Of a stretch of 49,227 nucleotides of DNA, positions 11,720-41,808 are shown one piece after another. Source of the DNA: an uncultured bacterium (GTDB taxonomy: Bacteria > Ratteibacteria > UBA8468 > B48-G9 > JAFGKM01); assembly GCA_964400565.1 (NCBI GenBank), contig CAYNUP010000158.1:1-49227 (forward strand), given 5' to 3'. Each line of letters starts with the position of its first letter. Within the stretch, counting starts at the first letter, position 1. Below the pieces are notes generated by a model that had not been told where the DNA came from, made no database searches, and saw nothing but the letters and a program-made list of their open reading frames with translations. A program made the translations under genes and the position numbers.

Positions 11720-12883
11720 ATGAGTGGAAAAGAAAGAGTCCTTAATGCGTTTAATCATAAAGAAAGTGACTATGTTCCTGTTTCTGATCAGTTAATTGTT
11801 TCAAAAGTTGCTTCTGAAATTCTTGGAAGATATGCTTATACAGGTGGAGGAGAATTTGCAAAGGATAGAATTGAATTATTATATAAAGGAGAAAGAGATT
11901 TTCTTGTTGAAAGATATGTTGAAGATACTGTTGAAGTTTATGAAAAACTTGGGTTAGATTTTATTCCTGTAGAACTTGTTCCATCAAAAAATTATTCAAA
12001 AGATGGTCTTCCTAAAAAAATTGGAGAATATACTTATCTATATGAAAATAAAGAAACAAAAAATTACTTAATATATAAATTTAATCCTTCATCAGGTGAA
12101 TTCTTCCGTGTTTCTTCTTCATATGATAAAGATGGTCTTGAGGCACTTAAAAGAGAGATTAAATGGTTGGAAAAGAAAATGGAAGAAGAAATTAAATTTG
12201 ATGATAAAAGTGTATTTGAGGGATGGGATAGAATTGTGGAAAAAGTTGGCAACAAAATGGCAATTGCTTTTTCTGCAGTTCTTGCAATACCACTAATCCC
12301 AATCTATCTTGAAGCCATTATTTTAGAACCAGAGTGGATTGAAATTTATCTTGATTTTCAAACAAAATGGCAGATTGAATTTATAAAAGAAGGGAAAAAA
12401 CATGGTGCTGATTTTATTCTTGGAGGAGGAGACCTTGCTGATAAAAATGGACCAATTTATAGCCCTAAAATTTTTGAAAAATTCCTTATGCCAAGATATA
12501 AAAGAATCGTTGATGTGTGTCATTCTCTGGGGTTATTTTATGTTTTTAGAAGCGATGGAAATACAAGACCATTATGGGATATATGGTTTTCCGAAATTGG
12601 ATTTGATGGTTATGGAGAAATTGATAAATCCGCTGGTATTGAATTAAAAGAATTAAAAGAAAAATATGGAGATATAATTACACTTCTTGGAAATGTTGAT
12701 TGTGCAAAAACCCTTGTATATGGTAGTAAAGAAGATATTTATGAGGAGGTTAAAAAATGCATAAATGATGCTGCAAAAGGTGGAGGATATATTTTAACAT
12801 CTTCAAATTCAATTCACTATAATGTTCCTGCAAAAAATCTTATATATATGATTGAAGCATCAAGAAAATTTGGAAAGTATTAA
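11720..12883 (+). CDS. uroporphyrinogen decarboxylase (URO-D) family protein, MtaA/CmuA-like
   Basis: ERVLNAFNHKESDYVPV N-terminus and 387-aa length are typical of non-HemE URO-D family members. GGAGGT lies 5 nt upstream of the ATG. Confidence 0.65.
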   Translation: MSGKERVLNAFNHKESDYVPVSDQLIVSKVASEILGRYAYTGGGEFAKDRIELLYKGERDFLVERYVEDTVEVYEKLGLDFIPVELVPSKNYSKDGLPKKIGEYTYLYENKETKNYLIYKFNPSSGEFFRVSSSYDKDGLEALKREIKWLEKKMEEEIKFDDKSVFEGWDRIVEKVGNKMAIAFSAVLAIPLIPIYLEAIILEPEWIEIYLDFQTKWQIEFIKEGKKHGADFILGGGDLADKNGPIYSPKIFEKFLMPRYKRIVDVCHSLGLFYVFRSDGNTRPLWDIWFSEIGFDGYGEIDKSAGIELKELKEKYGDIITLLGNVDCAKTLVYGSKEDIYEEVKKCINDAAKGGGYILTSSNSIHYNVPAKNLIYMIEASRKFGKY

Positions 12884-12893
12884 ATTTTTAAAA

Positions 12894-13694
12894 TTAAAAT
12901 CTTTTTTGTAAGTTTTTCAAAACATAAGAAGGAAGACCAAATACATTAATTTTTTTTGTAAAAGGATTCTTATAAACAAGAACTTTTGTATTATAAACTT
13001 CTTCTATATTCTGGTATGTTAAAACTTCTTCAACTTTCCCACTTTTATAAATTTCTCCATTTTTAAATAAAATTATTTTTGAACAATAACAGGCAGCAAT
13101 ATTTAAATCGTGAAAAACTCCTATTACAGTTATTCCTTTTTCATTGAGTTCCTTTAAAATATCCATAATACCAAATTGATATCCAATATCAAGATGACTT
13201 GTTGGTTCATCAAGTAAAATTGTTTCAGGATTTTGAATAATAACTTGAGCAATATAAATTCTCTGTTTTTCTCCTTCTGAAAGTTGGTTTAAATTTTTAG
13301 CAAGAAAATTCTCAACATTTAAAGTTTTACTTACCTGATTTAAAATTTCTCTTTTTTCTTTACCAAATCTCCCTGAAAATGGGTATCTTCCAAGAAGTAA
13401 AAAATCACACACTTTAATATCAAAAGTTAATTTAATTTCTGATGGTAAGTATGCTACCTCTTTTGAATATTCAATATTTTTTATTTTTTCTAATTTTTCA
13501 CCTTTATAAAATACATATCCTTCATCTGGAATTAAAATATTTGCCAGAATTTTCAAAAATGTAGTTTTTCCACTTCCATTTGGTCCGACAATTCCAACAA
13601 ACTCACCTTTAAAAATATCAACATTTAAATTCTTTAAAACCTTATTTTTCCCATAACTGAAACTTAAATTTTTAATCTCATAAATCTTTACCAT
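12894..13694 (-). CDS. btuD: ABC transporter ATP-binding protein, iron-chelate/cobalamin (FecE/BtuD) type
   Basis: Walker A GPNGSGKTT, signature LSEGEKQR, Walker B ILLDEPTSHLD. It is the last gene of the riboswitch-headed operon. Confidence 0.8.
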   Translation of the reverse strand: MVKIYEIKNLSFSYGKNKVLKNLNVDIFKGEFVGIVGPNGSGKTTFLKILANILIPDEGYVFYKGEKLEKIKNIEYSKEVAYLPSEIKLTFDIKVCDFLLLGRYPFSGRFGKEKREILNQVSKTLNVENFLAKNLNQLSEGEKQRIYIAQVIIQNPETILLDEPTSHLDIGYQFGIMDILKELNEKGITVIGVFHDLNIAACYCSKIILFKNGEIYKSGKVEEVLTYQNIEEVYNTKVLVYKNPFTKKINVFGLPSYVLKNLQKRF

Positions 13695-14638
13695 ATTTTT
13701 TCTGCCTTTATAAGCAAGAATAAAAAGAAAATACCACCAAAAAATCCAGTTATAACTCCAACAGGAATCTCTATTGGCCTTATTATAGTTCTTGAAATAG
13801 TATCACATATAATAAGAAAAGCTCCTCCTATTATAAAAGAAAAAGGGATAATTTTCCTATGAAGTGAACCAAAAATAATCCTTACAATATGTGGAATTAT
13901 AAGTCCAACAAATCCAATAATTCCAGAAAGAGAAACACATAGGGAAGTAATAAAACATGCGATAAAATAAGATATATTTTTTTCAAAATTTACATTTATT
14001 CCAAGTGTTTTTGCCTTCTCTTCGTCAATACTTATAATATCATAAACTCTACCAGATAAAGTTAAAAAAACAGAAAAAATAAATATTAAAACTCCAGAAT
14101 AAACTAAAATTTTTTCAGAAAAAGAAGAAAGGTCTCCAAAAAGGAACAAAACTGTTGAATAAAATTTTTCATATCTTATAGATGAGATAAGAAAAAGAAC
14201 AAAAGATGAAAATATGAAATTTAAGGATATCCCTGCAAGAATAATAGAAGAAGTTGAAAGTTTTTTTATTGTTGAAATTGAAAGGATAAGAAAAAGTGGG
14301 ATAATTGCACCAATAAAACCAAAAAGAGGAATTGAATTTATTCTCCCAACTATTATTCCTATAGTTATTCCCAAAGAAGCACCTCCTGAAATTCCAAGTG
14401 TATAACTTTCAGCAAGAGGATTTTTCAGAACTGCCTGCAAAACACATCCTGAAATTGAAAGTCCTGCTCCAACTATGAAAGCACAGATTACTCTTGGAAT
14501 CCTTATTTTTAAAAGTATGTTTTTTTCAATTTCAGAAAGATTAAAAATTTCTTTAAAGGTATAAATTCTTGAACCAAAAAATATCCCAAAATAAATTGCA
14601 AATATAAAAAACAAAATCAAAAAAATAATTTTTCTCAA
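13688..14638 (-). CDS. btuC: FecCD-family ABC permease (BtuC-like corrinoid/iron-chelate permease)
   Basis: LKIRIPRVICAFIVGAGLSISG and LGISGGASLG are FecCD/BtuC signatures. The apparent start is TTG overlapping the cobO stop (TTGA); there is no in-frame ATG nearby. Confidence 0.8.
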   Translation of the reverse strand: MRKIIFLILFFIFAIYFGIFFGSRIYTFKEIFNLSEIEKNILLKIRIPRVICAFIVGAGLSISGCVLQAVLKNPLAESYTLGISGGASLGITIGIIVGRINSIPLFGFIGAIIPLFLILSISTIKKLSTSSIILAGISLNFIFSSFVLFLISSIRYEKFYSTVLFLFGDLSSFSEKILVYSGVLIFIFSVFLTLSGRVYDIISIDEEKAKTLGINVNFEKNISYFIACFITSLCVSLSGIIGFVGLIIPHIVRIIFGSLHRKIIPFSFIIGGAFLIICDTISRTIIRPIEIPVGVITGFFGGIFFLFLLIKAEKIW

Positions 14639-15159
14639 TATTCAATCCCTTTTCTTGCTTTTATTCCTTTATCGTATGGATGTTTTATTTTTTTAATTTC
14701 ACTTACAAGGTCTGCTTTTTCAATTATCTTTTCAGTTATTGTGCGACCTGTTAATATCAATTCCACATTTTCCGGTTTTTCTTCCATGATTTCTATTATT
14801 TCCTCTTCTTTCAAAAAACCATCCCTTAAAGAAATTAAAATCTCATCGCAGACAACAATATCATAATTTTTCTCTTTATAAATTTTCTTTATAAATTCTA
14901 TCCCTTTTAAACATTCTTCCCTCAATTTCTCTTTTTCTACTTTATCAAAATGTGGATGCTCTTTTGCAAAACCAAATATATCAACTCCTATTTTTTCTAA
15001 AATTTTAAATTCACCATATCCCCATTTATCTGGATTTTTATGGAAATAGATATAACAGACCTTTAAATTGTGACCTCTTGCTCTACAGACAAGTCCAATA
15101 ACTGCACTTGTCTTTCCTTTCCCATCTCCTGTATAGACCTCAATCAATCCTTTTTCCAT
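14635..15159 (-). CDS. cobO: cob(I)yrinic acid a,c-diamide / cob(I)alamin adenosyltransferase (CobO/BtuR type)
   Basis: GLIEVYTGDGKGKTSAVIGL P-loop and a 174-aa length are typical of CobA/CobO/BtuR. Confidence 0.85.
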   Translation of the reverse strand: MEKGLIEVYTGDGKGKTSAVIGLVCRARGHNLKVCYIYFHKNPDKWGYGEFKILEKIGVDIFGFAKEHPHFDKVEKEKLREECLKGIEFIKKIYKEKNYDIVVCDEILISLRDGFLKEEEIIEIMEEKPENVELILTGRTITEKIIEKADLVSEIKKIKHPYDKGIKARKGIEY

Positions 15160-15231
15160 TTCCTTTATTTTATAATTTATTTCCCCATTTTACCACTTGA
15201 CCAATTGCTCAAATGGTAAAATGTAAAAACC

Positions 15232-16047
15232 TTATTTGTGAAAGAAATGAAAAATCCTGTAAAGTTCTTCAACGACTTCTAAAAATGTCAAAGGCGTTGG
15301 ACTGCATATTTTATTACTATCAATTACAAAAATTTTATCATTTTTCACAGCATCTATCATTTTATATTTCTGCCATGTCTTTTTTTCCTCTTCTGTGTCT
15401 ATTCCCATTGATGTTATTATAATTATTTCTGGATTTTTCTTTATAATTTCTTCAATACTATAAATTCCTCCTTCTCCTTTAATTATATTTTTACCCCCTG
15501 AAAATTTTACCATCTCACCTATAAAAGAATCTTGGCCTGCAACCCATAAAGGTCTTGTTCCAACTTGAATTAAAACTTTTGGTTTTCTTTTATTTTCTGT
15601 TTTTCTTCTGATTTTATCAATTTCTATTTTTACTTTTTTTATTATCTCTTCTGCCTTCTCTTTCCTGCCAATAATTTCGCCTATATTTATAAACTGCTCA
15701 CACAACTGGTTAAAATTTTTTGGATATGAAAAAATTTCAACTTTTATACCCAAATCTTTCAATTTTTTAATATCTTTTGGATTTGTTAGATTTGTAGCAA
15801 ATACAATATCTGGTCTTAGAGAATAAATTTTTTCAATATTCACATTTATTACATCTCCCACCTTTTCTTTATATTTTGCTTGGTCTGGTGTTATACAGTA
15901 TATTGTATTTCCAACAATTTTATCTCCTTCGCCAAGAATGAAAATATTTTCTGTTATTGCAGGTCCAAGAGAAACAATTCTTTCAGGTACATTTTCTGAA
16001 TATAATCTAATTATGAAAATACTTATTAAAAATATTATCTTTTTCAT
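15232..16047 (-). CDS. btuF: periplasmic substrate-binding protein, class 8 (BtuF-like, corrinoid/iron-chelate)
   Basis: Signal peptide MKKIIFLISIFII, then ERIVSLGPAITENIFILG and PDIVFAT motifs of the PBP cluster A-2 (BtuF/FhuD) family. The ATG lies 2 nt after the stop of the upstream pseudopilin gene. Confidence 0.8.
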   Translation of the reverse strand: MKKIIFLISIFIIRLYSENVPERIVSLGPAITENIFILGEGDKIVGNTIYCITPDQAKYKEKVGDVINVNIEKIYSLRPDIVFATNLTNPKDIKKLKDLGIKVEIFSYPKNFNQLCEQFINIGEIIGRKEKAEEIIKKVKIEIDKIRRKTENKRKPKVLIQVGTRPLWVAGQDSFIGEMVKFSGGKNIIKGEGGIYSIEEIIKKNPEIIIITSMGIDTEEEKKTWQKYKMIDAVKNDKIFVIDSNKICSPTPLTFLEVVEELYRIFHFFHK

Positions 16048-16049
16048 TT

Positions 16050-16769
16050 TTATTCCAGATCATATAAACTATTGTCAGTTGATAAATCTCCAAGTGAAGA
16101 ATTTTTATTACTTACATTATATTTTGTTTTTAATCCTTCAACATGCCCATCACAGAAAGCAACATTTGCAATTCCATTATGCCTGAAATGAACATTAGGG
16201 CCTATCCATGAATAATAAGGGTCATTAGGTGCTCTTAAATAATTGTTTCCTATTACTTCATTTGTAAAAGAGGACCATGATGCACTATCACATAATAAAA
16301 CGGTTTCTGATGGTTTTTTAATCCTTGAAAGTTTTGTTGGTGGAGTTGCCTGACCATCCCAAACAGAATATCCACCTCCAATATAAGAAGCATTATAAGC
16401 ATAACCTGTAAATGGTCTATCATATGATTTTATTATTTTTTTTGCAGTTGGACATTCAAATATACCTTTTGTTAAATAACTTCCAATAATTCCAGGTCTA
16501 TAAGTTGCCCACCAAGTATCTGTTGCAAAATCCCATCCAATTTCAGATGTATAGGTTAAATAATATGTTGGTGGAAAGTAATCATCATTGTCCTGAACAT
16601 ACATTAAAAAAGCCATTGATAATTGTTTTAGATTGTTTAAACAGGTTGCCTGTCTTGCCTTTTCTCTTGCTTTCGCAAGTGCTGGCATAAGCATCGCTGC
16701 AAGAATACCTATTATAGCCACAACAACAAGCAATTCTATAAGAGTAAATCCTTTTCTTTCTTTTCTCAT
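16050..16769 (-). CDS. prepilin-type N-terminal cleavage/methylation domain protein, DUF1559 (H-X9-DG) family
   Basis: Class III signal peptide MRKERKG|[20 protein letters not shown] with Glu at +5. [13 protein letters not shown] helix. C-terminal [12 protein letters not shown] is exactly H-X9-DG. RBS GGAGGAGC lies upstream. Confidence 0.85.
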
Positions 16770-16862
16770 TTTTGCTCCTCCTTTTTTAATTTTTTATTTA
16801 TATTTTTTAATTTAACTTACCCAGTAATTTAATTTTTGCTCATTTTATATCACCTCCTTTCA

Positions 16863-16894
16863 AATAAAAAAGCCCACCAACATTTTGGCGGGCT
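16863..16894 (-). terminator. intrinsic terminator forming the riboswitch expression platform
   Basis: The minus strand reads AGCCCGCCAA-AATG-TTGGTGGGCT followed by TTTTTATTT. This is a 10-bp stem whose G-U pair exists only on the minus-strand transcript. Confidence 0.8.
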
Positions 16895-16948
16895 GCACCC
16901 GATTTCTTCGCCATTTCTTTCTGCCCTCGCAGAAAGAAAACTCGCCAA

Positions 16949-17120
16949 CTTAGGGCAGGTCTTCTGACTCGGGCTTCGTCCTACTCGGCTACCTTCCCAT
17001 CCATTTAAGGACAGTGGCTTTTTGCCTTTCGTCTGCCCTTACAGCTCCGGGGGAGTGGCTGATCATCCACCTGTGGCGGACTACAGCACTTCCCTATTAA
17101 GCCATTTCTGGCACCCTAAG
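16949..17120 (-). promoter_or_regulatory. cobalamin (B12) riboswitch aptamer
   Basis: The minus strand reads CTTAGGGTGCCAGAAATGGCTTAATAGGGAAGTGCTG...CACTCCCCCGGAGCTGTAAGGGC...AAGCCACTGTCC...GGGAAGGTAGCC...CCCGAGTCAGAAGACCTGCCCTAAG. It has the conserved AATAGGGAA, CCCCCG..CTGTAAG, GCCACTG and GGGAAGG cores, the B12 box AGTCAGAAGACCTGCC, and a P1 of CTTAGGG/CCCTAAG. It is a GC-rich island in an AT-rich genome. Confidence 0.85.
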
Positions 17121-17135
17121 TTTTTATTATTTAAA

Positions 17136-17162
17136 TTTATATCAAATTTTCTATAAAGTCAA
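17136..17162 (-). promoter_or_regulatory. candidate sigma70 promoter of the riboswitch operon
   Basis: The minus strand reads TTGACT-N15-TATAAA with TG one base upstream of the -10 (TGATATAAAT, extended -10). It ends about 15 nt before the P1 stem. Confidence 0.45.
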
Positions 17163-24777: not shown

Positions 24778-24778
24778 A

Positions 24779-26119: not shown

Positions 26120-26120
26120 A

Positions 26121-30307: not shown

Positions 30308-31511
30308 AAATTTAGAATCTGAAAGAATAAGAAATTTACCTGTTTATATGTTTCAGGAGATAAATACAAGGAAACTTCAATTAAGGAAAGAAGGCAGAGA
30401 TATTATTGACCTTGGAATGGGAAATCCTGATAAACCTCCACCAGCACCTGTAATAGAAAAATTGAAGGAAGTCCTTAAAGACCCAAAAGTTCATAGATAT
30501 AGTGCATCAAAGGGAATTTTACATTTAAGAAAAGAAATATGTAACTGGTATGAAAGAAGGTTTGGAGTAAAAATTGACCCAGAGGAAGAGGCGATTGTGT
30601 GTATTGGGTCAAAAGAAGGAATAAGCCATCTTGCACTTGCAATATTTGATAAAGGGGATGTAGTGCTTGTTCCAAATCCTACATATCCAAGTCATCTTTA
30701 TAGTATTATAATAGCAGGAGGGACTATTTATGACATGCCTTTGACAAAAGAAAACAATTTCATTCCAGACCTTTCACAACCTATTTACGATAGATATCCA
30801 AAACCAAAAGCAATGATTTTAAGTTATCCGAATAATCCTACTACTCAGGTTGTAAATATTGATTTTTTTAAAGAAGCAGTGAAATTTGCAAAGAAAAATG
30901 ACCTTATAGTAATTCATGATATTGCATATTCTGAAATATATTTTGAAAAGGAATATAAACCACCAAGTTTCCTTCAGGTAGATGGTGCAAAAAATGTTGG
31001 GATTGAGTTCTATTCGCTTTCAAAAACATATAATATGGCTGGTTGGCGTGTAGGATTTGCTGTTGGAAATAAGTATGTAATAAAGGCACTCGCAAAACTT
31101 AAAAGTTATTACGACTATGGCATATTTACACCAATTCAGATTTCTGCAATATGTGCTTTGCGCCTTGATGAAAAATATATAGACCAGGTAAGGGAAACAT
31201 ATAAAAGAAGAAGAGATGTGCTTGTAGATGGTCTTAACAGAATTGGTTGGAATGTGGAAAAACCAAAAGCAACAATGTATGTATGGGCTGAAATACCTGA
31301 AAAATTTAAAAGTATGGGTTCTATGAGATTTTCTTTATATTTACTTGAAAATGCAGAAGTAGCGGTATCTCCTGGAGCAGGATTTGGGAAATATGGAGAA
31401 GGATATATAAGGTTTGCTCTTGTTGAAAATGAACAGAGAATAAGACAGGCAATTAGAAATATAAAAAAATTGGACCCGGGCGGATTCGAACCACCAACCA
31501 ACGGATTATGA
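30297..31511 (+). CDS. alaC: class I/II PLP-dependent aminotransferase, AlaC/YfdZ-like alanine transaminase
   Basis: LPVYMFQEI, IIDLGMGNPDKPPPAPVIEKL (compare E. coli AlaC IIDLSMGNPDGPTPPHIVEKL), NPTTQV, SLSKTYNMAGWRVGF (PLP lysine). ORF track starts at TTG 30285. The last 41 nt are antisense to the tRNA. Confidence 0.8.
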   Translation: MKIKNLESERIRNLPVYMFQEINTRKLQLRKEGRDIIDLGMGNPDKPPPAPVIEKLKEVLKDPKVHRYSASKGILHLRKEICNWYERRFGVKIDPEEEAIVCIGSKEGISHLALAIFDKGDVVLVPNPTYPSHLYSIIIAGGTIYDMPLTKENNFIPDLSQPIYDRYPKPKAMILSYPNNPTTQVVNIDFFKEAVKFAKKNDLIVIHDIAYSEIYFEKEYKPPSFLQVDGAKNVGIEFYSLSKTYNMAGWRVGFAVGNKYVIKALAKLKSYYDYGIFTPIQISAICALRLDEKYIDQVRETYKRRRDVLVDGLNRIGWNVEKPKATMYVWAEIPEKFKSMGSMRFSLYLLENAEVAVSPGAGFGKYGEGYIRFALVENEQRIRQAIRNIKKLDPGGFEPPTNGL

Positions 31512-31542
31512 GTCCGCTGCTCTGCCGTTGAGCTACGGGTCC
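31471..31542 (-). tRNA. tRNA with anticodon CAT (elongator Met, or Ile2 read via lysidine)
   Basis: The minus strand reads GGACCCG-TA-GCTC-AACGGCA-GAGC-A-GCGGA-CTCATAA-TCCGT-TGGTT-GGTGG-TTCGAAT-CCGCC-CGGGTCC-A. This is a full 72-nt cloverleaf with GG in the D loop and a TTCGAAT T loop; no CCA is encoded. The anticodon stem lacks the three G-C pairs of initiator tRNA. C4-G69 and C5-G68 resemble tRNA-Ile2 TilS determinants. Confidence 0.9.
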
Positions 31543-31595: not shown

Positions 31596-32345
31596 TTACC
31601 TGAATTTATAAAGAATGTCATCAGAATTAGGATTGTCAACAGTTCCATCAGCATTTGCATCACCTGGAATTGTTGCTTTATAACCTGTTTCAAGTTTTCC
31701 ATTTGGACCTGCTGAATAAATTATCATAACTTTTTCACCCTCTATTCCATGTGATGAAATTGTTCTGTCATCATAAGCAACAAGATAAGTATGTCCCCAA
31801 GGATCAAGAGGAGTACCATAAGGAACTCTATTTTCTAGTTCTTGATCCGTCCCCCAATCAGAAGAAGCAGATACTTGAGGAACAGAACCATTACTTTGTT
31901 GATAAGTTGCTTTTGGTTGAAAAGTTATATAAGGTCCATCCCAATTATGTCCTTGTGTTATTTCTGATTCGCCATCTGTAGAATCTTTAAGATTATCATA
32001 AGAATTATCGGAAACATAAACAACATAAACAAAAGTATAAGTTCCTTCTTTAGGCGGGGAATCACTTGGATTATAAGGTAAGGTCCCTCTTCCAAAAGGA
32101 TAACCTGTATGTGAAGAAGATGCTAAATTAACATCACTTAAATCACATAATCTTACATACCAACCAACATCCATTTTTACCATTGTCATTACACTTGCTA
32201 AATTTGCCATTTCTGCTTTTGCTTTATCTATTAATGCTTTGCTTCTTGATTTTCTTATTGCTGGAAGAAGAAGTCCTGCCAAAAAAGCAATAATAACCAT
32301 AACAACAAGCAATTCAATAACTGTAAAACCAATTTTCTTTTTCAT
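31596..32345 (-). CDS. GspG/PulG-like pseudopilin with large insertion (prepilin-type N-terminal cleavage/methylation domain)
   Basis: MKKKIG|[24 protein letters not shown] with Glu+5. AKAEMANL helix. C-terminal DPWGHTY...IIYSAGPNGK matches the GspG DPWGxxY...GxDG core. About 100 extra residues lie between the helix and this core. Asp-rich tail DANADGTVDNPNSDD. Confidence 0.75.
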   Translation of the reverse strand: MKKKIGFTVIELLVVMVIIAFLAGLLLPAIRKSRSKALIDKAKAEMANLASVMTMVKMDVGWYVRLCDLSDVNLASSSHTGYPFGRGTLPYNPSDSPPKEGTYTFVYVVYVSDNSYDNLKDSTDGESEITQGHNWDGPYITFQPKATYQQSNGSVPQVSASSDWGTDQELENRVPYGTPLDPWGHTYLVAYDDRTISSHGIEGEKVMIIYSAGPNGKLETGYKATIPGDANADGTVDNPNSDDILYKFR

Positions 32346-32357
32346 TTTCTCTCCTTT

Positions 32358-32786
32358 TTAAATATGTCCTTTACTTTTTAGAAAATCTAAAACTTCTTTT
32401 ACAAATTTTTCAAAAATATTTAAATTTTCACATACATTTAAAACTTCCTCCTCATCAACTTCCCAATAAAGATGAACAAGACGATTTCTTAATCCAGTTA
32501 ATTTAACCATTTCCTTTTCTAATTCCTCACTTATGATATTTTCTTTCCTTAAATTTCTAAATATCTCTTTATAAGTATCTGGTCTTTTCAGAGAAAGCCC
32601 TGAAATTATATGATTCCCAATATTTAAACAATCTTCTATAGCAAGTTGTAAATTTCTTTCAATTGCTGGAATTAATATTTCTTTTTGTTCTTTTCTATCT
32701 TTTAAATCTTTTATTTTCCCAATATGTTCTTTTAATCTTTCAATCTGCAAAAACAATTTTTCTTTATCAATCCCAGAAGGAACCAT
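32358..32786 (-). CDS. hepT: HepT-like (DUF86, HEPN) ribonuclease toxin of a type VII toxin-antitoxin pair
   Basis: RNRLVHLYW is the HEPN R-x4-H motif with the following Tyr. About 140 aa. It overlaps the end of the upstream MntA-like gene. ORF track starts at TTG 32792; an ATG lies at 32786. Confidence 0.8.
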   Translation of the reverse strand: MVPSGIDKEKLFLQIERLKEHIGKIKDLKDRKEQKEILIPAIERNLQLAIEDCLNIGNHIISGLSLKRPDTYKEIFRNLRKENIISEELEKEMVKLTGLRNRLVHLYWEVDEEEVLNVCENLNIFEKFVKEVLDFLKSKGHI

Positions 32787-33216
32787 TTTCAATTTTTTCT
32801 CTCATCTTTTCAAAATATTCATTTCTCATATAGGAAGTGTCAAAATATTCATTTTCTTTTTTTGTTTCAAATTCAATTTTTGTTTTTAAATCTTTTGCAT
32901 ATAAACATTTTCCTTCTTTTAAAATTCTATGTATTAATGTTAAGGATGCTCTTTTTAAATTTACAATATCTATTGCCTCATCTTCAAAAATTTCTTCAAG
33001 TTTTTCAATCAATTCAATTTCTTTATCAAAATTTTCTTCAGGTAAATAGGCAATATCTATATCACTAAGTTTCCATGTTTTTCCAGTTGAATATGAGCCA
33101 TAAATATAAAAAAGGGAAATTTTAAATTCATTACAAACTTTTTCAATATCTTTTTCAATTTTTTCAAAATCAATTTTTTTACCTTCCCTACTCTTTAAAA
33201 CAGAATAAAACCTCAT
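32767..33216 (-). CDS. mntA: MntA-like minimal nucleotidyltransferase antitoxin
   Basis: [21 protein letters not shown] is a GS-x9-SDIDI Pol-beta NTase motif. 149 aa. The ATG overlaps the stop of the upstream pilin gene (ATGA). Confidence 0.8.
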
Positions 33217-33851
33217 TCTTCACCCCATTGCCCTTTATTTATAGTTATTGACCCTCCATCCTTCTGGCAAGCAACATTCCCCATATATGTATCTGTTGAA
33301 AAATCTATCTCCTGCAAATTTATCCAATTTACAGAACCATCTATATATAATGTATTTATTCCCCAAGCATGATTTCCAATTAAAGGGTCGAAACCATTTG
33401 GTAAATTTGAATACTTTGACAGGTCTTTTTTATTATATATTCCTCTATCACTTATCATTGGAACTGGTTTTGTTGACTTATTTGATGTTGTTAGTCCAAA
33501 AACAAAAGCATAAGAATTATTCCATGAACTACTATCAATTGTTGTTGGAAGTGGATTATTTCTACCTATTGAACTTGGACACCAGAATGTTTTTGGAGTA
33601 TTTATGTAATTGGGATAAATTGATTTTCCACCAATATAAAGACCTTCAGGTGAAGAAGGAAATTTTTCATAATGGTCCTCTGCATACATTTCATAAGCAA
33701 CAGAAAACTGTTTTAAATTGGTCATACAAGTTGTTCTTCTTGCTCTTTCTCTTGCTGTAGATAAGGCGGGTAAAAGTAATCCAGCAAGAACTGCTATTAT
33801 AGCAATAACCACAAGAAGTTCTATAAGTGTAAAACCACTTTTTTTTTCCAT
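33213..33851 (-). CDS. prepilin-type N-terminal cleavage/methylation domain protein, DUF1559 (H-X9-DG) family
   Basis: MEKKSG|[36 protein letters not shown], and C-terminal [14 protein letters not shown], which is H-X9-DG. Confidence 0.85.
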
Positions 33852-33865
33852 TATATTCTCCTTTT

Positions 33866-35179
33866 TTATTCTCCACCACCTCCACCTCCTCCTGTGGCTC
33901 CAGATAAACTCATAGCAATTTTAATCAGAGGCATATAAAGAGAAATAACTATAAAACCAACAACTCCACCAAGAAATACAATCATTATTGGTTCTATCAT
34001 TGAAGCAAGTGCTGCAACTGCTGAATCAACTTCTGCTTCATAAGCATCTGCTATTTTATCAAGCATAGCATCCATCTGTCCTGTTTCTTCTCCTACCGCA
34101 ACCATATTTGTTACCATCGGAGGAAATACCTTTGTTCTTAACATTGGACCTGCTATTCCTTCTCCTTCCCTTACTCTATTTCTTATCTCATTTATTCCAT
34201 TTGCTATAACATCATTACCAACTGTATCCCTTACAATCTGCAATGACTGTAATATAGGAACACCACTTGAAATTAAAGTCGCAAATGTCCTTGCAAACCT
34301 TGCAATTATTGTCTTTGAAATGATTGGTCCAAAAAGGAAAATTTTTAATTTCAACATATCTATCCAGTATTTTGTAAACTTAATTTTCATAAGGATTTTG
34401 TAAAATATAAAAAGTGCAAAAATACCTGCAATAACAAGCGGTGCTTTCTGGGTCATAAGTTTTGATATTGCTATAACCATTTTTGTTGGTGCAGGTAAAT
34501 CTCCCACTTCCATATCCTGAAATATTTGGATAAATGTTGGAACTATTTTTAACATAATAAAGGTTAACATACCAATTGTAACAAAAAGGACAACAGTAGG
34601 ATATGCCATCGCTGATTTTATTTTTCCTCTCAATTTTGCTTCCTTCTCCATGAAATCTGCAAGTCGGGAAAGAACTATTTCAAGGGCTCCACCTGCTTCT
34701 CCTGCTTTTACCATAGCAACATATATTCTTGGGAAACTACTCGGATGTTTACTCAATGCTTCTGAAAATAATGAACCACTTTCAATATCATCTGCTATTT
34801 TACCAAGAATAACACTTGCTGCTCCTTTCCTCTGTTCTTTTAAAACTCTTAATGATCTTAAAAGTGGAAGTCCTGCACCAATTAGTGTTGCTAACTGTCT
34901 TGTTATAATCATTAATTCTTTCGGTTTTATTTTATTTCCACCAATAAATGGGATTGGAATTGACATTGAAAGTCCAGTCCCTGTTTTCTTCTTTGTAGTT
35001 GGTTTCGGTTTTGCCTCAGTTGAACTTTTTGTTGCCTGTGTTTTTGCTGGAGTAACACTTGTAACAAAATATCCCATACCCTTTAATTTTGCTATTGCCT
35101 CCTGAACTCCAGAAGCATCTATTGTCCCCTTTAATGTTTTCCCTGAACTGTCTATCGCATTATACTGAAATAATGCCAT
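33866..35179 (-). CDS. pilC: type II secretion system F family platform protein (PilC/GspF)
   Basis: N-terminal [19 protein letters not shown]. Two T2SSF repeats ([19 protein letters not shown] and [19 protein letters not shown]). Three TM segments. Ends in a GGGGGGGE tail. Confidence 0.9.
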
Positions 35180-35193
35180 TTTATCTTCTCCTT

Positions 35194-36912
35194 TTAATAA
35201 CCATGGACTTCCTTTGCAACTTCCTCTATAGTAGTTATACCCATATTTATTTTTTGAAGTCCATCATCAAGCAATGTTTTCATTCCACAACTTTTTATAG
35301 CAATCTCCCTTATTTCTCCAAGAGGTCTTCTTTCATATATTGCCTGCCAGAATTCTTCATTTGGTGTTAATATTTCAAAAATCCCTGTTCTTCCCTTATA
35401 CCCTCCTCTACAGAAAGGACATCCAACAGGTCTGTAAAATTTCATATTCTCTGCCTGCTCAGGAGTTAAACTAACCTGCATTAATTCCTGTTTTGTTGGT
35501 CTGTATTCCTGTTTACATCTTGGACATAAAACTCTTACAAGTCGCTGTGCTATAACTCCTTCAATTGTAGATGCAAGTAAAAATGGTTCAACATTCATAT
35601 CAACAAGTCGGTAAATTGTCGTCGGAGCATCATTTGTATGTAATGTACTTAAAACAATATGACCTGTTAATGATGCCTGAATTGCCATCTGTGCTGTATC
35701 AAAATCCCTTACCTCTCCAACAAGTATAATATCAGGGTCCTGCCTTAATATACTCCTTAAACATCTTGCAAATGTAAGTCCAATATGTTCTTTAATTGGA
35801 ACCTGAATTGCTCCTTCAAGCATATATTCAACAGGGTCTTCTGTTGTTATTACTTTTACATCAGGGGTATTCAGTTTTCTTAATATAGCATATAATGTTG
35901 TGGTTTTCCCGCATCCTGTAGGTCCTGTTGCAAGTATTATTCCATGTGGTTTTCTTATCATCCTTTCAATCTTTTCCATATCATCTGGTAAAAGCCCAAG
36001 GTTTTCAAGTTCAAATATTGTTTTTCCTCTATCAAGAACTCTAATTGCAAGACATTCACCAAAAACAGTAGGAACAGTATTTACACGAAGGTCAACATCT
36101 CTACCCATAACAGACAGTTCTATTCTTCCATCCTGAGGAAGTCTTCTTTCTGCTATATCCATACCAGCCATAATTTTAAATCTACAAAATAATGCAAAAG
36201 CAAGTCCTTTTGGTGGATGAACCAAATCATACAAAACACCATCAACTCTGTATCTTACTCTAAAATCATCTTCAAATGGTTCAAGATGGACATCTGAGGC
36301 ATTATCTCTTACTGTTTGAAGTAAAATCAGGTCAAATAATTTAACAACAGGTGGTAAAGAAGCAATTTCTTCAAGAGATGTAATTGTTGCATATTCTCCC
36401 TGACTTGCTATTGCTTCCAGTTCTTCCATCTCTTCAACATCCTGAGCAAGCCATTTTATTAAGTCATCTATTGTTTCTATTTCTTTACCATAATATGTCT
36501 CAATTGCTTCTTTTATATCATTTTCATCCGCAATAACCATTTTTATTTTATAACCGAGAATAAATGAAATATCATCCTGAATATTTAAACTTATAGTATC
36601 TCCAACTGCAAGGGTTAAAGTATCTCTTTCAAGTTTAATTGGAACTACATTATATGTTTTTGCAAGTGCTGATGGAAAGACCTCAATTGCTTTTCTATCT
36701 ATGGGTGTATTTTTTAAATCAACCATTTCAATACCTGCCTGAATACTTAAAACTCTTTTTAAATCCTTTTCAGAAACAAAACCAAGGTCAACAAGAATTC
36801 TTCCAAGAAAATAGCCTGTTTCCCTCTGTTTTTCAAGTGCCATTTTAAGTTGTTGCTCTGTTATAAGTCCTTCTTCAATAAGCATCTGCCCGATTAACTT
36901 TCTTGCAGTCAT
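35194..36912 (-). CDS. pilB: GspE/PilB-family pilus extension ATPase with MshEN-like N-terminal domain (paralogue 2)
   Basis: Walker A GPTGCGKTTT, Asp box, Walker B ILVGEVRD, His box STLHTND, tetracysteine CPRC...CPFC. The N-terminus carries two 24-residue MshEN-type repeats. Confidence 0.9.
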   Translation of the reverse strand: MTARKLIGQMLIEEGLITEQQLKMALEKQRETGYFLGRILVDLGFVSEKDLKRVLSIQAGIEMVDLKNTPIDRKAIEVFPSALAKTYNVVPIKLERDTLTLAVGDTISLNIQDDISFILGYKIKMVIADENDIKEAIETYYGKEIETIDDLIKWLAQDVEEMEELEAIASQGEYATITSLEEIASLPPVVKLFDLILLQTVRDNASDVHLEPFEDDFRVRYRVDGVLYDLVHPPKGLAFALFCRFKIMAGMDIAERRLPQDGRIELSVMGRDVDLRVNTVPTVFGECLAIRVLDRGKTIFELENLGLLPDDMEKIERMIRKPHGIILATGPTGCGKTTTLYAILRKLNTPDVKVITTEDPVEYMLEGAIQVPIKEHIGLTFARCLRSILRQDPDIILVGEVRDFDTAQMAIQASLTGHIVLSTLHTNDAPTTIYRLVDMNVEPFLLASTIEGVIAQRLVRVLCPRCKQEYRPTKQELMQVSLTPEQAENMKFYRPVGCPFCRGGYKGRTGIFEILTPNEEFWQAIYERRPLGEIREIAIKSCGMKTLLDDGLQKINMGITTIEEVAKEVHGY

Positions 36913-36913
36913 A

Positions 36914-38056
36914 TTACTTCGCCTCCCTTGCCATTTCTGCTGATATTCCTTCCTCTCTTTTTTCTTTCAAGATTTCCTCTCCAAGAACTCCTTCAGCAAC
37001 AAGTTGTGCTTTGACATTTTCAGGGTCATAACTGAATGTCAGAACATCATCAAGTCCAATTTTACCCTCTTTAAAAAGTCGCATCAAAAATGAATCCATA
37101 GTTACCATACCCCATTTTCCTCCTGTCTGTATCTCTGAAATAATCCTGTATGTTTTTCTTTCCCTTATTAAATTCTGAATTGATGGAGTAGCGACCATTA
37201 CTTCAAAAGCAGCAACTCTTCCAGGTTTATCAATTCTTTTTAATAAGACCTGTGAGATAATTGCTAAAATTGAAACAGAAAGCATAACCCTTATCTGTTC
37301 CTGCTGAGCAACAGGGAAAACATTTACAATTCTATCAACTGTTCTTGCTGCACCTGTTGTATGTAATGTAGCAAATACAATATGGCCTGTTTCTGCTGCT
37401 GTTATTGCTGCTTCTATTGTTTCAAGATCTCTCATTTCACCAACAAGAAATACATCTGGGTCCTGTCTTAAACCTCTTCTTAATGCTTCAGCAAATGTAG
37501 GAACATCAACTCCAAGTTCTCTCTGTGTTATTATTGACCTTTTATGTGAATGATAATATTCAATTGGGTCTTCAATTGTTATTATATGTCTTTCAAGATT
37601 TGTATTAATCCAGTCAACCATTGTAGCAAGAGTCGTTGTTTTACCAGAACCTGTTGGTCCTGTAACAAGAATAAGTCCTCTTGGTCTTGTTAATAAATAT
37701 TTCATAGTATTTTCATCAAGACCTATCTCTTGAAATGTTAAAAATTTATAAGGGATTAACCTTAAAGCAAGAGCCACATGTCCCCTTTCTTTAAATACAC
37801 TTACTCTAAATCTTGCAAGGTCTCTAAAAGCAAAGCCAAAATCTGTTCCACCTACTTTCTGTAGTTCTTCCTGATGTTCTCTTGATGTAATTGCTTTCAT
37901 ATAATTTACTGTATCTTCAGGAGTTAATGGTTCACTATCAAGTTTATGGAGTCCTCCATGAAGACGAGCCATAGGAGGAAGTCCAACATTCAAATGTAAA
38001 TCTGATGCATTTTCTTTAACAACAAATTCAAGCAATTCTTCTATCCTTTTTGCCAT
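36914..38056 (-). CDS. pilT: type IV pilus twitching motility (retraction) ATPase PilT
   Basis: ASDLHL N-terminus, GPTGSGKTTT, VFLVGEMRD, ATLHTTGA, AIISQVL. About 380 aa with no N-terminal GSPII_E_N domain, which fits PilT/PilU rather than PilB. Confidence 0.9.
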   Translation of the reverse strand: MAKRIEELLEFVVKENASDLHLNVGLPPMARLHGGLHKLDSEPLTPEDTVNYMKAITSREHQEELQKVGGTDFGFAFRDLARFRVSVFKERGHVALALRLIPYKFLTFQEIGLDENTMKYLLTRPRGLILVTGPTGSGKTTTLATMVDWINTNLERHIITIEDPIEYYHSHKRSIITQRELGVDVPTFAEALRRGLRQDPDVFLVGEMRDLETIEAAITAAETGHIVFATLHTTGAARTVDRIVNVFPVAQQEQIRVMLSVSILAIISQVLLKRIDKPGRVAAFEVMVATPSIQNLIRERKTYRIISEIQTGGKWGMVTMDSFLMRLFKEGKIGLDDVLTFSYDPENVKAQLVAEGVLGEEILKEKREEGISAEMAREAK

Positions 38057-39769
38057 TTATCCCTCCTGTCCTGTAACAGATATAACCTCATCAATAGTTG
38101 TTATCCCAATCTTTACCTTCAAAATACCATCCTCATACATACTCCTCATACCTCCCCTTTCCGCTGCTTTCCTTAACTCTTCTGCACTTACCCTTCTTAA
38201 TGTCAACTCTCTCAGTTCATCATTCATAACAAATATTTCAAAAATACCTATTCTTCCGTAAAATCCAGTAAATCCACATTCATTACACCCTTTTGGCTGA
38301 CATACATTAACTTCTTCTCCTTCTTTTATTTTCAACAATTTTTTCAATCTCTCATCCGGTTCAATTTTTTCTTTACAATATGGACATAAAACCCTTACAA
38401 GACGCTGTGCCATAACTCCCTGAACTGCTGATGCAACTAAAAATGGTGGCATGCCGAGGTCTATCAATCTTGTTATTGCACTTGGAGCATCATTTGTATG
38501 TAATGTGGAGAAAACAAGATGTCCTGTTAATGCTGCTCTTAAAGCAATATCTGCTGTTTCCTTGTCCCTGATTTCACCCACAAGTATAACATCAGGAGAT
38601 TGTCTTAAAAATGCTCTTAAAACATTTGCAAAAGTTAGTCCAATTTCTGCATTAACAGGCGTTTGATTTATACCCGGAATCTGATACTCAACTGGTTCTT
38701 CAACTGTCATAATTTTCCTATCTATTGTATTTAATTGCTGAAGAGATGCATAAAGAGTTGTTGTTTTACCAGAACCTGTTGGTCCTGTTACAAGAACAAG
38801 TCCTCCTGTAAATTGCAAAATTTTATTCCATTTTTCAAGGTCATCTGGCAAAAATCCAAGTTTATCAAGTCCTATCAACATCCTTGTTTTATCAAGGATT
38901 CTCAATACAACACTTTCTCCATAAATCCCTGGTAAAGTTGAAACTCTAAAATCAATAGGTCTCCCCCCTATATCAAGCATTATTCTACCATCTTGAGGAA
39001 GTCTTTTTTCTGCTATATCCATCTTTGACATTAATTTTATTCTTGCAATAACTGCTCTTTCTATTCTTTTTGGTGGAGATACGATTTCATATAAAACACC
39101 ATCTATTCTAAATCTAACTCTAAATTTTTTCTCAAGTGGTTCAAGATGGATATCACTTGCTCTTCTTCTCAATGCTTCAACAAAAATTAAATTAACTATT
39201 TTTACAACAGGTGCCTGTAAAGCGAGTGTTTCTTCATCTTCTTCTACCTCTTCTAAATTAGGAAGGTCCATATCAATTGTTGCACTACTGGCTTCCTGTA
39301 ACATTGCTGTCAAATCTTCCATATCCTCCTCTCCATAATATTTTTCAAGTAACTGGTCTATCTCTTCTCTAAAAGTAACTATCATTTCAACATTTTTTAT
39401 CCCTTCAATACCTGCAACTTTTTTAAAATAATCAGCAGCAAGAATATTTAAAGGGTCATCTGTAACAAAAACAAGGGCATTGTCTCTTTTTTCCCATGGA
39501 ACAACTCTGTGATTTTTAACAATTTTAGGAGGAAGAATACTTATTACTTCTTGAGGAATTTCTCTTAAAGGAAGTTCTCTCTGAACGATACCAAGTTGAA
39601 AATAAAAGGAAGGACTGATTTCTCCAAAAGGAAGCATCCCTTTACCCTGAAAAATTTCTCTTAATCTCTGACCAGTCCTTTCCTGTTCCTCAAGTGCCTG
39701 TTCAATACTCCTTCTATCCCAGAGGCCAATATTTTGAATTACATTTATAATTTCTCTTTTTGTTGGCAT
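38057..39769 (-). CDS. pilB: GspE/PilB-family pilus extension ATPase (paralogue 1, degenerate N-terminal repeats)
   Basis: GPTGSGKTTT, ILVGEIRD, STLHTNDA, CPYC...CNEC tetracysteine site. 570 aa. Confidence 0.9.
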   Translation of the reverse strand: MPTKREIINVIQNIGLWDRRSIEQALEEQERTGQRLREIFQGKGMLPFGEISPSFYFQLGIVQRELPLREIPQEVISILPPKIVKNHRVVPWEKRDNALVFVTDDPLNILAADYFKKVAGIEGIKNVEMIVTFREEIDQLLEKYYGEEDMEDLTAMLQEASSATIDMDLPNLEEVEEDEETLALQAPVVKIVNLIFVEALRRRASDIHLEPLEKKFRVRFRIDGVLYEIVSPPKRIERAVIARIKLMSKMDIAEKRLPQDGRIMLDIGGRPIDFRVSTLPGIYGESVVLRILDKTRMLIGLDKLGFLPDDLEKWNKILQFTGGLVLVTGPTGSGKTTTLYASLQQLNTIDRKIMTVEEPVEYQIPGINQTPVNAEIGLTFANVLRAFLRQSPDVILVGEIRDKETADIALRAALTGHLVFSTLHTNDAPSAITRLIDLGMPPFLVASAVQGVMAQRLVRVLCPYCKEKIEPDERLKKLLKIKEGEEVNVCQPKGCNECGFTGFYGRIGIFEIFVMNDELRELTLRRVSAEELRKAAERGGMRSMYEDGILKVKIGITTIDEVISVTGQEG

Positions 39770-40791: not shown

Positions 40792-41808
40792 TTATAAAAG
40801 GCGCATTTCTATCATTTTTTCAGCAATTTGTATCGCATTTAAGGCAGCACCCTTTCTTATATTATCACTTACAACCCACATATCAAGAGAATTTTCAAGA
40901 CATACATTTTTCCTTATTCTTCCTACAAAAACCTCATCCTTACCCGAAACAAACAGAGGCATCGGGTATAAACTATTTTCTGGCTGGTCAATAACTTTTA
41001 TTCCAGGTGAATTTTTAAGTATTTCTCTTGCTATTTCAATGTCAACTTTTTTTTCAAATTGTGCTGTTATACTTTCAGAATGTCCATTAAAAACAGGAAC
41101 TCTTACACAGGTGGCAGAAACTTTTAAATCAGGTAAATCCATAATTTTCCTTGTTTCTTTTATCATTTTTACTTCCTCTGTATAATAACCTATAAATTCT
41201 TCGCTTAAAGAACCAATTTCAGGAATAACATTCCCAAATATTTGATAAGGATATACCTCATTTATTATTTTTTCACCCTTTATATAACTTTCAATCTGCT
41301 TCTGCAATTCTTCAACTGCCTTTTTTCCTGTTCCTGAAACTGCCTGATAGGTTGAAACAATTACTCTTTTAAGTCCAAATTCAATATGAAGAGGATATAA
41401 AGCAACAACCATCTGAATTGTGGAACAGTTTGGATTTGAAATAAAACCCTGATGCTTTTTAAGATGGTCTGGATTAACTTCAGGAACAACAAGAGGAACC
41501 CTTTCATCCATTCTAAAATCTGCTCCATTATCTATTACGATACAGCCCATTTTTACTGCTTCCCATCCAAATAGTTTACTCGCTCCTTTTTCTCCTTCTG
41601 TTCCTGCAAAAAATGCAATATCAATACCTTTAAATGATTCAATTTTTGTTTTTTCTATTTTAAAATTTATTCCTGCTATTTCCTCAGTTCTCTCCTTTGT
41701 TGCAAGAATTTTTAAATTTTTAAAAGGGAACTTTCTCTCAATCAATATTTCCACCATTTTTTTACCAACCATACCAGCACCAACAACACAAATATTATAC
41801 TTTTTCAT
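40792..41808 (-). CDS. asd: aspartate-semialdehyde dehydrogenase
   Basis: VVGAGMVG Rossmann N-terminus, the active-site stretch NPNCSTIQMV, and SGTGKKA. Confidence 0.95.
   Translation of the reverse strand: MKKYNICVVGAGMVGKKMVEILIERKFPFKNLKILATKERTEEIAGINFKIEKTKIESFKGIDIAFFAGTEGEKGASKLFGWEAVKMGCIVIDNGADFRMDERVPLVVPEVNPDHLKKHQGFISNPNCSTIQMVVALYPLHIEFGLKRVIVSTYQAVSGTGKKAVEELQKQIESYIKGEKIINEVYPYQIFGNVIPEIGSLSEEFIGYYTEEVKMIKETRKIMDLPDLKVSATCVRVPVFNGHSESITAQFEKKVDIEIAREILKNSPGIKVIDQPENSLYPMPLFVSGKDEVFVGRIRKNVCLENSLDMWVVSDNIRKGAALNAIQIAEKMIEMRLL

Follow-up and report, generated by a model that had tools for sequence, protein, structure and literature searches.

The 49,227-nucleotide stretch analyzed here (contig CAYNUP010000158.1 of assembly GCA_964400565.1, from an uncultured Ratteibacteria bacterium; hereafter the window) has a G+C content of 29.5%, and its nearest relatives are labelled Candidatus Ratteibacteria or Omnitrophota. 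On its minus strand lies a vitamin B12 (cobalamin) riboswitch followed by five open reading frames (ORF1–ORF5), the first of which encodes a prepilin-type protein of the DUF1559 family (hereafter the pilin) and the other four a BtuF-like protein, CobO, a BtuC-like permease and a BtuD-like ATPase (Table 1). The riboswitch and the pilin were found together across a whole clade of DUF1559 proteins.

The riboswitch-led operon

The leader was evaluated using cmscan, which matched it to the cobalamin riboswitch family RF00174 over the full length of the model (positions 1–189) with 101.2 bits against a gathering score of 31.5 (E = 3e-24). The alignment showed the P1 strands CUUAGGG/CCCUAAG, the GCCACUG core and the B12 box AGUCAGAAGACCUGCC, and our own covariance model R1, built from 15 aptamers, gave the element 174 bits. 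In addition, a terminator scan revealed a 10-bp stem with six G–C pairs followed by TTTTTTATTT, and this hairpin dominated the minimum free energy fold of the leader (RNA from 16975 to 16855). The terminator starts 43 nt past the aptamer, and the layout is equal at the locus of the closest ortholog (L001). Moreover, a promoter-like TTGACT and TAAATT with a 17-nt spacer was detected by pattern matching (9 of 12 consensus positions), and the L001 leader carries a perfect TTGACA-16-TATAAT at the equivalent position. Judged by the established mechanism of RF00174 elements, from which repression by B12 is deduced, riboswitch and terminator would act together as a transcriptional OFF switch.

The five ORFs follow one another with spacings of 2 nt and 72 nt and overlaps of 4 nt and 7 nt. 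ORF2, ORF4 and ORF5 together encode the PF01497, PF01032 and PF00005 components that make up the architecture of a BtuFCD-type importer. Against the equivalog models, ORF2 scored 107 bits with BtuF (NF002894, cut-off 234), its best B12-related match, ORF4 scored 202 bits with BtuC (NF003001, cut-off 334), and ORF5 scored 146.5 bits with BtuD (cut-off 281) and 203 bits, again under the cut-off, with the corrinoid ATP-binding cassette (ABC) ATPase model NF007082. Because the BtuF, BtuC and BtuD scores lie below the equivalog cut-offs, the corrinoid specificity of the importer rests on the riboswitch and the embedded cobO. The riboswitch and the BtuFCD part of the locus are ordinary.

The initial annotation of this stretch had described these features, and they were borne out by the searches: the riboswitch with its cores and P1 stem, the intrinsic terminator behind it, a 239-aa protein with a class III (prepilin) signal peptide and an H-X9-DG motif (PF07963, PF07596 and TIGR04294), five co-directional genes with no gap above 72 nt, the 2-nt spacer between the pilin and the BtuF-like gene, and the BtuF-like, CobO, BtuC-like and BtuD-like identities (PF01497, PF02572, PF01032 and PF00005).

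Linkage of riboswitch and pilin among relatives

For comparison, 120 loci were collected by a genome scan, by exact-protein look-ups and by a metagenome scan for which the head domain alone served as seed, and were scanned with Rfam and with R1 (608 kb, both strands). A locus was counted as testable when at least 400 nt of DNA lay upstream of the pilin, and the readable neighbourhood was about 10 kb on each side of each locus. In an approximate neighbour-joining tree of 91 pilins, the loci with an immediate riboswitch, with the exception of L100, formed one clade (clade A), which comprises 26 clusters at 90% identity, with identities to the window pilin down to 34% and locus G+C contents of 27–72%. 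RF00174 was detected above the gathering score directly upstream of the pilin in 24 of these clusters (loci with such a match: L006, L008, L009, L010, L012, L014, L029, L033, L036–L040, L041–L044, L045, L046, L048–L053, L056, L057, L084 and L099). Of the remaining two, L011 carries an adenosylcobalamin (AdoCbl)-type aptamer of 38.7 bits, which is below the gathering score of that family, was missed by R1 and was found by the permissive Rfam scan only, and L054 is a contig fragment on which the pilin follows btuC-btuD, so that any riboswitch would be off the contig. At all testable loci where head identity to the window pilin reaches 38% or more, RF00174 lies about 100–350 nt before the pilin start, and all 24 strong R1 matches lie upstream of a pilin on the same strand. 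In contrast, none of the testable DUF1559 paralog loci that belong to neither riboswitch-linked clade (clade A and clade B, described below), about 50 in number, has an immediate riboswitch; 14 of these loci come from Verrucomicrobiota, Lentisphaerota, Pirellulales and Akkermansia, and the two other pilins of the window are likewise without one. The sources of clade A, as labelled in metagenome bins, are Ratteibacteria, Omnitrophota, Armatimonadota and Victivallales. The labels WS1 and Zipacnadales are added by homologs, outside the tree, that share 61–62% identity with a high-GC member.

A chance origin of the arrangement is implausible, given the E-value of the riboswitch and the presence of the same arrangement on dozens of independent contigs, and the clade-wide recurrence of the linkage suggests that the pilin truly belongs to the B12 regulon as one of its conserved members. 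A one-off insertion, which the initial annotation had set against its own inference of a B12-regulated pseudopilin in corrinoid acquisition, is excluded by this recurrence, and the inference is supported on comparative-genomic grounds. Similarly, it is highly improbable that the pilin is a passenger DUF1559 paralog that landed between riboswitch and btuF and has no B12 function: such an event would be favoured by the great size of the family (about 224,000 clusters) and its many paralogs, two further ones of which lie in the window, but the linkage is ancient and specific to the clade, btuF can move away while the riboswitch remains at the pilin, and the pilin is under strong purifying selection. 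On these sequence comparisons, the pilin is very probably a functional B12 regulon member with a part in acquiring or handling corrinoids.

Where a clade A locus has sufficient downstream DNA, btuF and btuC/btuD in most cases follow the pilin, often within 2–90 nt. The riboswitch and the pilin as first gene are the constant features, and the remaining operon content varies. The five contigs L001–L005, which carry the closest ortholog (93% identity), are informative because pilin and btuF are no longer neighbours in them. A distance of 6.8 kb, occupied by genes for phosphatidylserine decarboxylase, a cupin and acetolactate decarboxylase and by two opposite-strand genes, separates the pilin from btuF-cobO, and the sole riboswitch (111 bits) is directly upstream of the pilin and is followed by its own terminator. 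In L011 (67% G+C, labelled Victivallales), cobO-btuF-btuD-btuC is divergent and the only cobalamin-clan element faces the pilin; in L037, the pilin has kept the riboswitch and is followed by a DUF4838 gene. Thus, in the uncoupled loci L001, L011 and L037 the riboswitch stays on the pilin side, and no second riboswitch was detected before the separated btuF in L001, L006 and L011. In L006, the pilin heads CobU-CobT-CobS-CobD-CbiB-CbiZ-BtuF-ThyX-CobO-BtuC, a full set for cobinamide salvage and remodelling, in which CobD is a CobD-type aminotransferase and CbiZ forms a fusion with a PgpA-like segment. L045 shows the same asymmetry as L011 and L037: behind its riboswitch-linked pilin come ORFs that were judged by eye from their sequences to be CobU/CobT-like.

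A homocysteine S-methyltransferase module stands between pilin and btuF in L010, L012, L014, L040 and L044, with an additional pterin-binding module in L010 and L040. No gene for a cobalamin-binding domain was seen at the MetH-like modules of L010, L012, L014 and L040, and these modules could be a B12-independent route of methyl transfer that is switched on at low B12. L040 also contains a second DUF1559 gene. For the pilin itself, a role as B12-independent isozyme, as known for metE and nrd under B12 riboswitches, was rejected because it has no enzymatic counterpart. Two long proteins with a C-terminal clade-A-like pilin domain (P0157 and P0210), considered as 'Rosetta stone' fusions, contained no B12-related domain; each resembles a fusion of the pilin with a secreted partner encoded upstream, which read-through in gene calling may have produced.

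The neighbourhoods also bear on whether the pilin might be an adhesin or pilus subunit that is induced by B12 starvation and attaches the cell to B12 producers or prey without binding corrinoid. A switch that is ON at low B12 would fit such a foraging response, and Ratteibacteria are discussed in a preprint on giant genes linked to cell-wall degradation by predatory bacteria (10.1101/2023.11.21.568195). However, the clade extends to other lineages, among them Armatimonadota-labelled loci of high GC content, and its near-universal adjacency to btuF/btuCD or to cob salvage genes argues for a direct role in transport, so that we regard an adhesin as quite improbable.

A second group of pilins (clade B), with 28–32% head identity to the window pilin, is likewise found behind RF00174. 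The riboswitch is directly upstream of the pilin in L100 and 1.5–2.1 kb upstream in L065, L076, L091, L101 and L102; three clade B members without a riboswitch match have too little upstream DNA to judge. The interval contains two signal-peptide proteins (about 260–300 aa and about 330 aa) in L065 and L076, only the protein of about 330 aa in L101 and L102, and a single 391-aa ORF in L091. On a 2.58-Mb contig, a cassette consists of a riboswitch (78 bits), proteins of 258 aa and 327 aa and the pilin, with no btu genes nearby. The secreted protein of about 258 aa is shared by the cassettes of L121, L065 and L076, and no btuFCD genes lie near the clade B cassettes. The partner proteins gave no Pfam match; the one of about 330 aa has 819 homologs, one of them labelled Verrucomicrobia subdivision 3. 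Furthermore, in L059 RF00174 is followed by a 164-aa PEP-CTERM protein, a 319-aa secreted protein and a DUF1559 pilin that falls into neither clade A nor clade B, and this locus may represent a third riboswitch-linked group.

Table 1. Positions of the features discussed, in the window unless a comparison locus is named.
Feature	Position	Strand	Evidence or remark
Promoter-like site	17134..17162	-	consensus scan
Cobalamin riboswitch aptamer, RF00174	16937..17133	-	cmscan and own model R1
Expression platform, intrinsic terminator and T tract	16861..16894	-	terminator scan and RNA fold
Intrinsic terminator stem	16871..16894	-	terminator scan
ORF1, DUF1559/H-X9-DG prepilin-type protein, clade A, 239 aa, first gene after riboswitch	16050..16769	-	PF07963, PF07596, TIGR04294
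PxVHFRH signature of ORF1 (residues 191–197)	about 16179..16199	-	
ORF2, BtuF-like periplasmic protein, putative corrinoid-binding, 271 aa, signal peptide, 2 nt past pilin stop	15232..16047	-	PF01497, 112 bits
ORF3, CobO/BtuR ATP:corrinoid adenosyltransferase, 174 aa	14635..15159	-	PF02572, 190 bits, full length; TIGR00708, 148.5 bits
ORF4, BtuC-like ABC permease, 316 aa	13688..14638	-	PF01032 FecCD, 274 bits
ORF5, BtuD-like ABC ATPase, 266 aa	12894..13694	-	PF00005, 107 bits
Pilus gene cluster, about 15 kb from B12 operon, same strand	31596..39769	-	Pfam
T2SSE and T2SSF genes of pilus cluster	33866..39769	-	Pfam
MNT/HepT toxin–antitoxin pair	32358..33216	-	
tRNA gene	31471..31542	-	71 bits
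URO-D/MtaA-family protein	11720..12883	+	under equivalog cut-offs
Tetrapyrrole-methylase-family protein, 224 aa	1432..2106	-	PF00590
BioY biotin transporter component	41795..42367	-	
Counterpart of the window terminator	L001 7870–7892		
Uncoupled pilin and btuF	L001 7630–16729; L011 6300–8800; L037 3152–6346		riboswitch on pilin side
Pilin with salvage and remodelling genes	L006 7722–16722		
MetH-like modules	L010 2848–4576; L012 2573–3478; L014 8706–9611; L040 5137–6850		between pilin and btuF
Clade B cassettes	L121 6860–9715; L065 1682–4624; L076 1710–4624; L101 1972–4606; L102 611–2945		
Possible third riboswitch-linked group	L059 1837–4627		RF00174, two proteins, pilin

The pilin protein and the pilus machinery

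ORF1 starts with the prepilin leader MRKERKG and has the site KG/FTLIELL with canonical G-1/F+1/E+5 residues and a hydrophobic N-terminal helix, which matched PF07963 N_methyl (37.8 bits) and TIGR02532 (35 bits). The protein scored 43.8 bits with PF07596 DUF1559 (SBP_bac_10; cut-off 23.3) and 28 bits with the H-X9-DG model TIGR04294 (cut-off 19), the motif being H197-X9-D207-G208 near the C-terminus. The AlphaFold2 model, computed with 48 orthologs, consists of a 50-residue N-terminal helix (residues 10–60) and a beta-rich head of about 180 residues, with a predicted local distance difference test (pLDDT) of 90 and a predicted template modelling score (pTM) of 0.83; a head-only run on a 21-sequence alignment gave a pLDDT of 51.5 and was unusable. 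The window pilin showed ratios of nonsynonymous to synonymous substitution (dN/dS) of 0.08–0.15 against orthologs, indicating strong purifying selection, and a chance ORF was rejected on this basis. Moreover, clades A and B have in common a PxVHFRH signature with an extra histidine, H194, which is carried by 91% of clade A and 89% of clade B pilins as against 8% of other DUF1559 pilins. Besides H194, the clade-specific residues comprise G93, G122, Y125, Y129, F195 and Y236. In the superfamily search, about 430,000 clusters at 50% identity reached E ≤ 1e-3 and about 224,000 reached E ≤ 1e-10, and clade A corresponds to only the top few dozen representatives. Some clade A members bear the NCBI name 'DUF1559 family PulG-like putative transporter', for which no NCBIfam hidden Markov model or paper was found; a generic transport idea is thus already in the annotation of the family, without a link to B12.

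The relation of ORF1 to the pseudopilins of type II secretion systems (T2SS) was also evaluated. It scored 47.5 bits with GspG (TIGR01710, equivalog cut-off 88.85) and 32.8 bits with the ComGC model (cut-off 75). Identity as a GspG ortholog was rejected, since the score is below the cut-off and the N-terminal helix alone (residues 6–64) is aligned. The pilin might nevertheless be the cargo-specific pseudopilin of a T2SS-like exporter that secretes a corrinoid scavenger, or displays it on the surface, under B12 limitation, without itself binding corrinoid. The BtuF-like protein with its signal peptide would be a candidate cargo, as would the two secreted proteins of clade B, the N-terminus resembles GspG/PulG, and the clade B pilin follows two signal-peptide proteins of unknown family under one riboswitch. 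However, the riboswitch is kept without an adjacent secreted partner in L001 and L037, the GspG cut-off is not reached, and no T2SS secretin or GspC/L/M genes were seen nearby; we therefore consider an exporter pseudopilin improbable.

A pilus gene cluster in the window encodes, in order, PilB-like, PilT-like and PilB-like ATPases, a PilC/GspF-like platform protein, a DUF1559/H-X9-DG pilin, an MNT/HepT pair and a second pilin (T2SSE three times, two with MshEN, and T2SSF, followed by N_methyl and DUF1559, Polbeta/HepT, and N_methyl). The position of a DUF1559 pilin directly after the platform gene suggests that in this organism DUF1559 proteins are pilins of a pilus system that potentially extends and retracts, and the cluster is a candidate assembly machinery for the B12 pilin. 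The cassettes of L038 and L121 likewise have T2SSE genes close by. The MNT/HepT toxin–antitoxin pair is inserted between the two pilin genes, and a tRNA gene lies immediately downstream of the cluster.

A SurA-like chaperone encoded in the window, together with LptD/BamA-type genes in the neighbourhoods of relatives, points to a diderm envelope. As the initial annotation had pointed out, no BtuB/TonB gene lies in the operon: a Pfam scan found no TonB-dependent receptor in the operon or among the scanned window ORFs (those of the division and cell wall (dcw) cluster at 23260–30307 being outside the scan), nor in the neighbourhoods of relatives with Pfam calls (about 10 kb on each side), a result that says nothing genome-wide.

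Among the other genes of the window, a URO-D/MtaA-family protein, similar to methylcobamide:coenzyme M methyltransferases, is encoded convergently with btuD; it is possibly a corrinoid-dependent methyltransferase beside the B12 operon and outside the riboswitch transcript. A tetrapyrrole-methylase-family protein and a BioY biotin transporter component were also found. The window revealed no genes for B12 biosynthesis, and a lifestyle based on salvaging corrinoids would be consistent with that.

A putative extracytoplasmic step in corrinoid acquisition

Taken together, we propose, with a probability of roughly 0.6, that the 239-aa protein is a B12-riboswitch-controlled member of a DUF1559 clade and serves as an extracytoplasmic component of corrinoid acquisition upstream of BtuF–BtuCD. 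It most likely acts outside the cytoplasmic membrane, in the capture or passage of corrinoid before BtuF. As to mechanism, we tentatively favour pilus-mediated capture and outer-membrane passage of corrinoid with hand-over to BtuF. When corrinoid is scarce, the aptamer would be empty, the terminator would not form, and the pilin would be transcribed with btuF-cobO-btuC-btuD. The prepilin would be cut after Gly7 and would either be built into a pilus or pseudopilus by a PilB/PilC/PilT-type machine, for example that of the window, or be kept in the inner membrane by its N-terminal helix. The clade-specific head would capture corrinoid at or beyond the outer membrane and bring it to the periplasmic BtuF, from where BtuCD would import it and CobO would adenosylate it. 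With B12 plentiful, the riboswitch would end transcription before the pilin. In this scheme, co-transcription, processing of the prepilin, its assembly into a filament, the binding of corrinoid and the transfer to BtuF are inferred.

Several points weigh against this proposal. To our knowledge, pilus-mediated vitamin uptake is without precedent, and a pilus is large for a 1.3-kDa ligand. No likeness of the head to known B12-binding protein folds was detected in sequence or structure. A profile search found no similarity of the head in PDB sequences and matched pilin N-termini only, and a Foldseek search with the pLDDT-90 model gave no match with E < 0.1 beyond the pilin helix; ORF1 is therefore a pilin-type protein whose head lacks a solved relative. 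Neither a secretin nor a prepilin peptidase was found among the scanned window ORFs, and the taxon labels, which come from metagenome bins, are not fully reliable for taxonomic breadth. Moreover, the pilin could remain an inner-membrane-anchored periplasmic protein. In that case it would not be assembled and would act as a periplasmic accessory to BtuF/BtuCD, such as a corrinoid-holding or docking factor, an explanation that differs from the proposed one only in the final location of the protein. Tight coupling of pilin and btuF (2 nt in the window and 9–22 nt in L029, L033 and L038), the lack of a secretin noted above, and a length that is large for a major pilin would all fit such a factor. 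Because the prepilin site is canonical and the window itself also codes for pilus ATPases and a platform protein, we nevertheless regard it as less likely, and prefer the reading in which the pilin takes part in capture or passage by a pilus.

This arrangement was compared with known uptake systems. Escherichia coli takes up B12 through BtuB/TonB and BtuFCD, with btuB under a cobalamin riboswitch. The window resembles this system in the B12 riboswitch over corrinoid uptake genes and in the combination of a BtuF-type protein, a FecCD permease and an ABC ATPase; unlike in E. coli, no TonB-dependent receptor was seen in the operon or the examined neighbourhoods, and the invariant first riboswitch target is a DUF1559 prepilin-type protein. 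In Bacteroides, the surface-exposed lipoproteins BtuG and BtuH capture B12 and work with BtuB, and they are encoded in uptake loci controlled by B12 riboswitches. As accessory extracytoplasmic proteins of such loci they provide the closest functional analogy, B12 binding being putative for the pilin, although the window protein has a class III signal and a DUF1559 head in place of a lipoprotein structure and shows no Pfam or PDB similarity to them. Type IV and competence pili (ComGC, DNA-binding minor pilins) retract an outside ligand to the periplasm, where it is passed to an inner-membrane transporter. The window likewise encodes a pilin-type subunit and PilB-, PilT- and PilC-like proteins as candidates for its assembly and retraction, whereas the proposed ligand is a vitamin and not a polymer. 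With GspG/PulG of the T2SS the pilin shares the N-terminal methylation motif and helix, but it differs in an unrelated head of about 180 aa and in the absence of a T2SS gene set nearby.

A literature search found nothing that links DUF1559 proteins, pilins or pseudopilins to cobalamin or cobalamin riboswitches, co-mentions being unrelated by title or abstract. This agrees with the statement of the initial annotation that no such role of DUF1559 was known, and conserved control of a DUF1559 pilin by B12, specific to a clade, seems not to have been reported before. Family members in nutrient loci have been described. In the verrucomicrobium Verruconatronum alginivorum, a gene cluster for alginate utilization, induced on this substrate, includes a pulG-like pseudopilin that has 67 homologs in the genome (PMC13274419). 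The genome of Planctopirus limnophila encodes 68 functionally uncharacterized DUF1559 paralogs, of which two are essential (PMC10632474). Pilus-like fibres of Planctomycetes bind dextran (PMC5394234), and the 'mechanisms and players' of fibre-mediated uptake were still called unknown in 2025 (PMC12673574). The window pilin resembles these pseudopilins of the Planctomycetota–Verrucomicrobiota–Chlamydiota (PVC) group in being a paralog of the same family embedded in a substrate-specific locus; it differs in that the substrate is indicated by a metabolite-sensing RNA and not by neighbouring enzymes, and in conservation at the level of a clade across phylum labels.

DUF1559 is among the largest protein families without known function, and here a metabolite-sensing RNA names a ligand for one of its clades, which provides the first ligand-level hypothesis for a DUF1559 member. 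Even if the pilin were only an accessory factor, the riboswitch–pilin rule would be a reliable annotation marker. In a wider and more doubtful extension, two, possibly three, DUF1559 clades might be the 'fishing' subunits of a pilus-based corrinoid route that replaces or supplements BtuB, and other DUF1559 paralogs of the PVC group, which number hundreds per genome, might be ligand-specific nutrient-capture pilins and the basis of fibre uptake in Planctomycetes. Such a route, if it exists, would span Ratteibacteria/Omnitrophota, Armatimonadota, Lentisphaerota and Verrucomicrobiota. If true, the proposal would add a new outer step to B12 acquisition that bears on cross-feeding in anoxic sediments, groundwater and bioreactors, would improve the annotation of B12 regulons in candidate phyla, and would offer the first molecular handle on the proposed fibre-mediated nutrient uptake of Planctomycetes.

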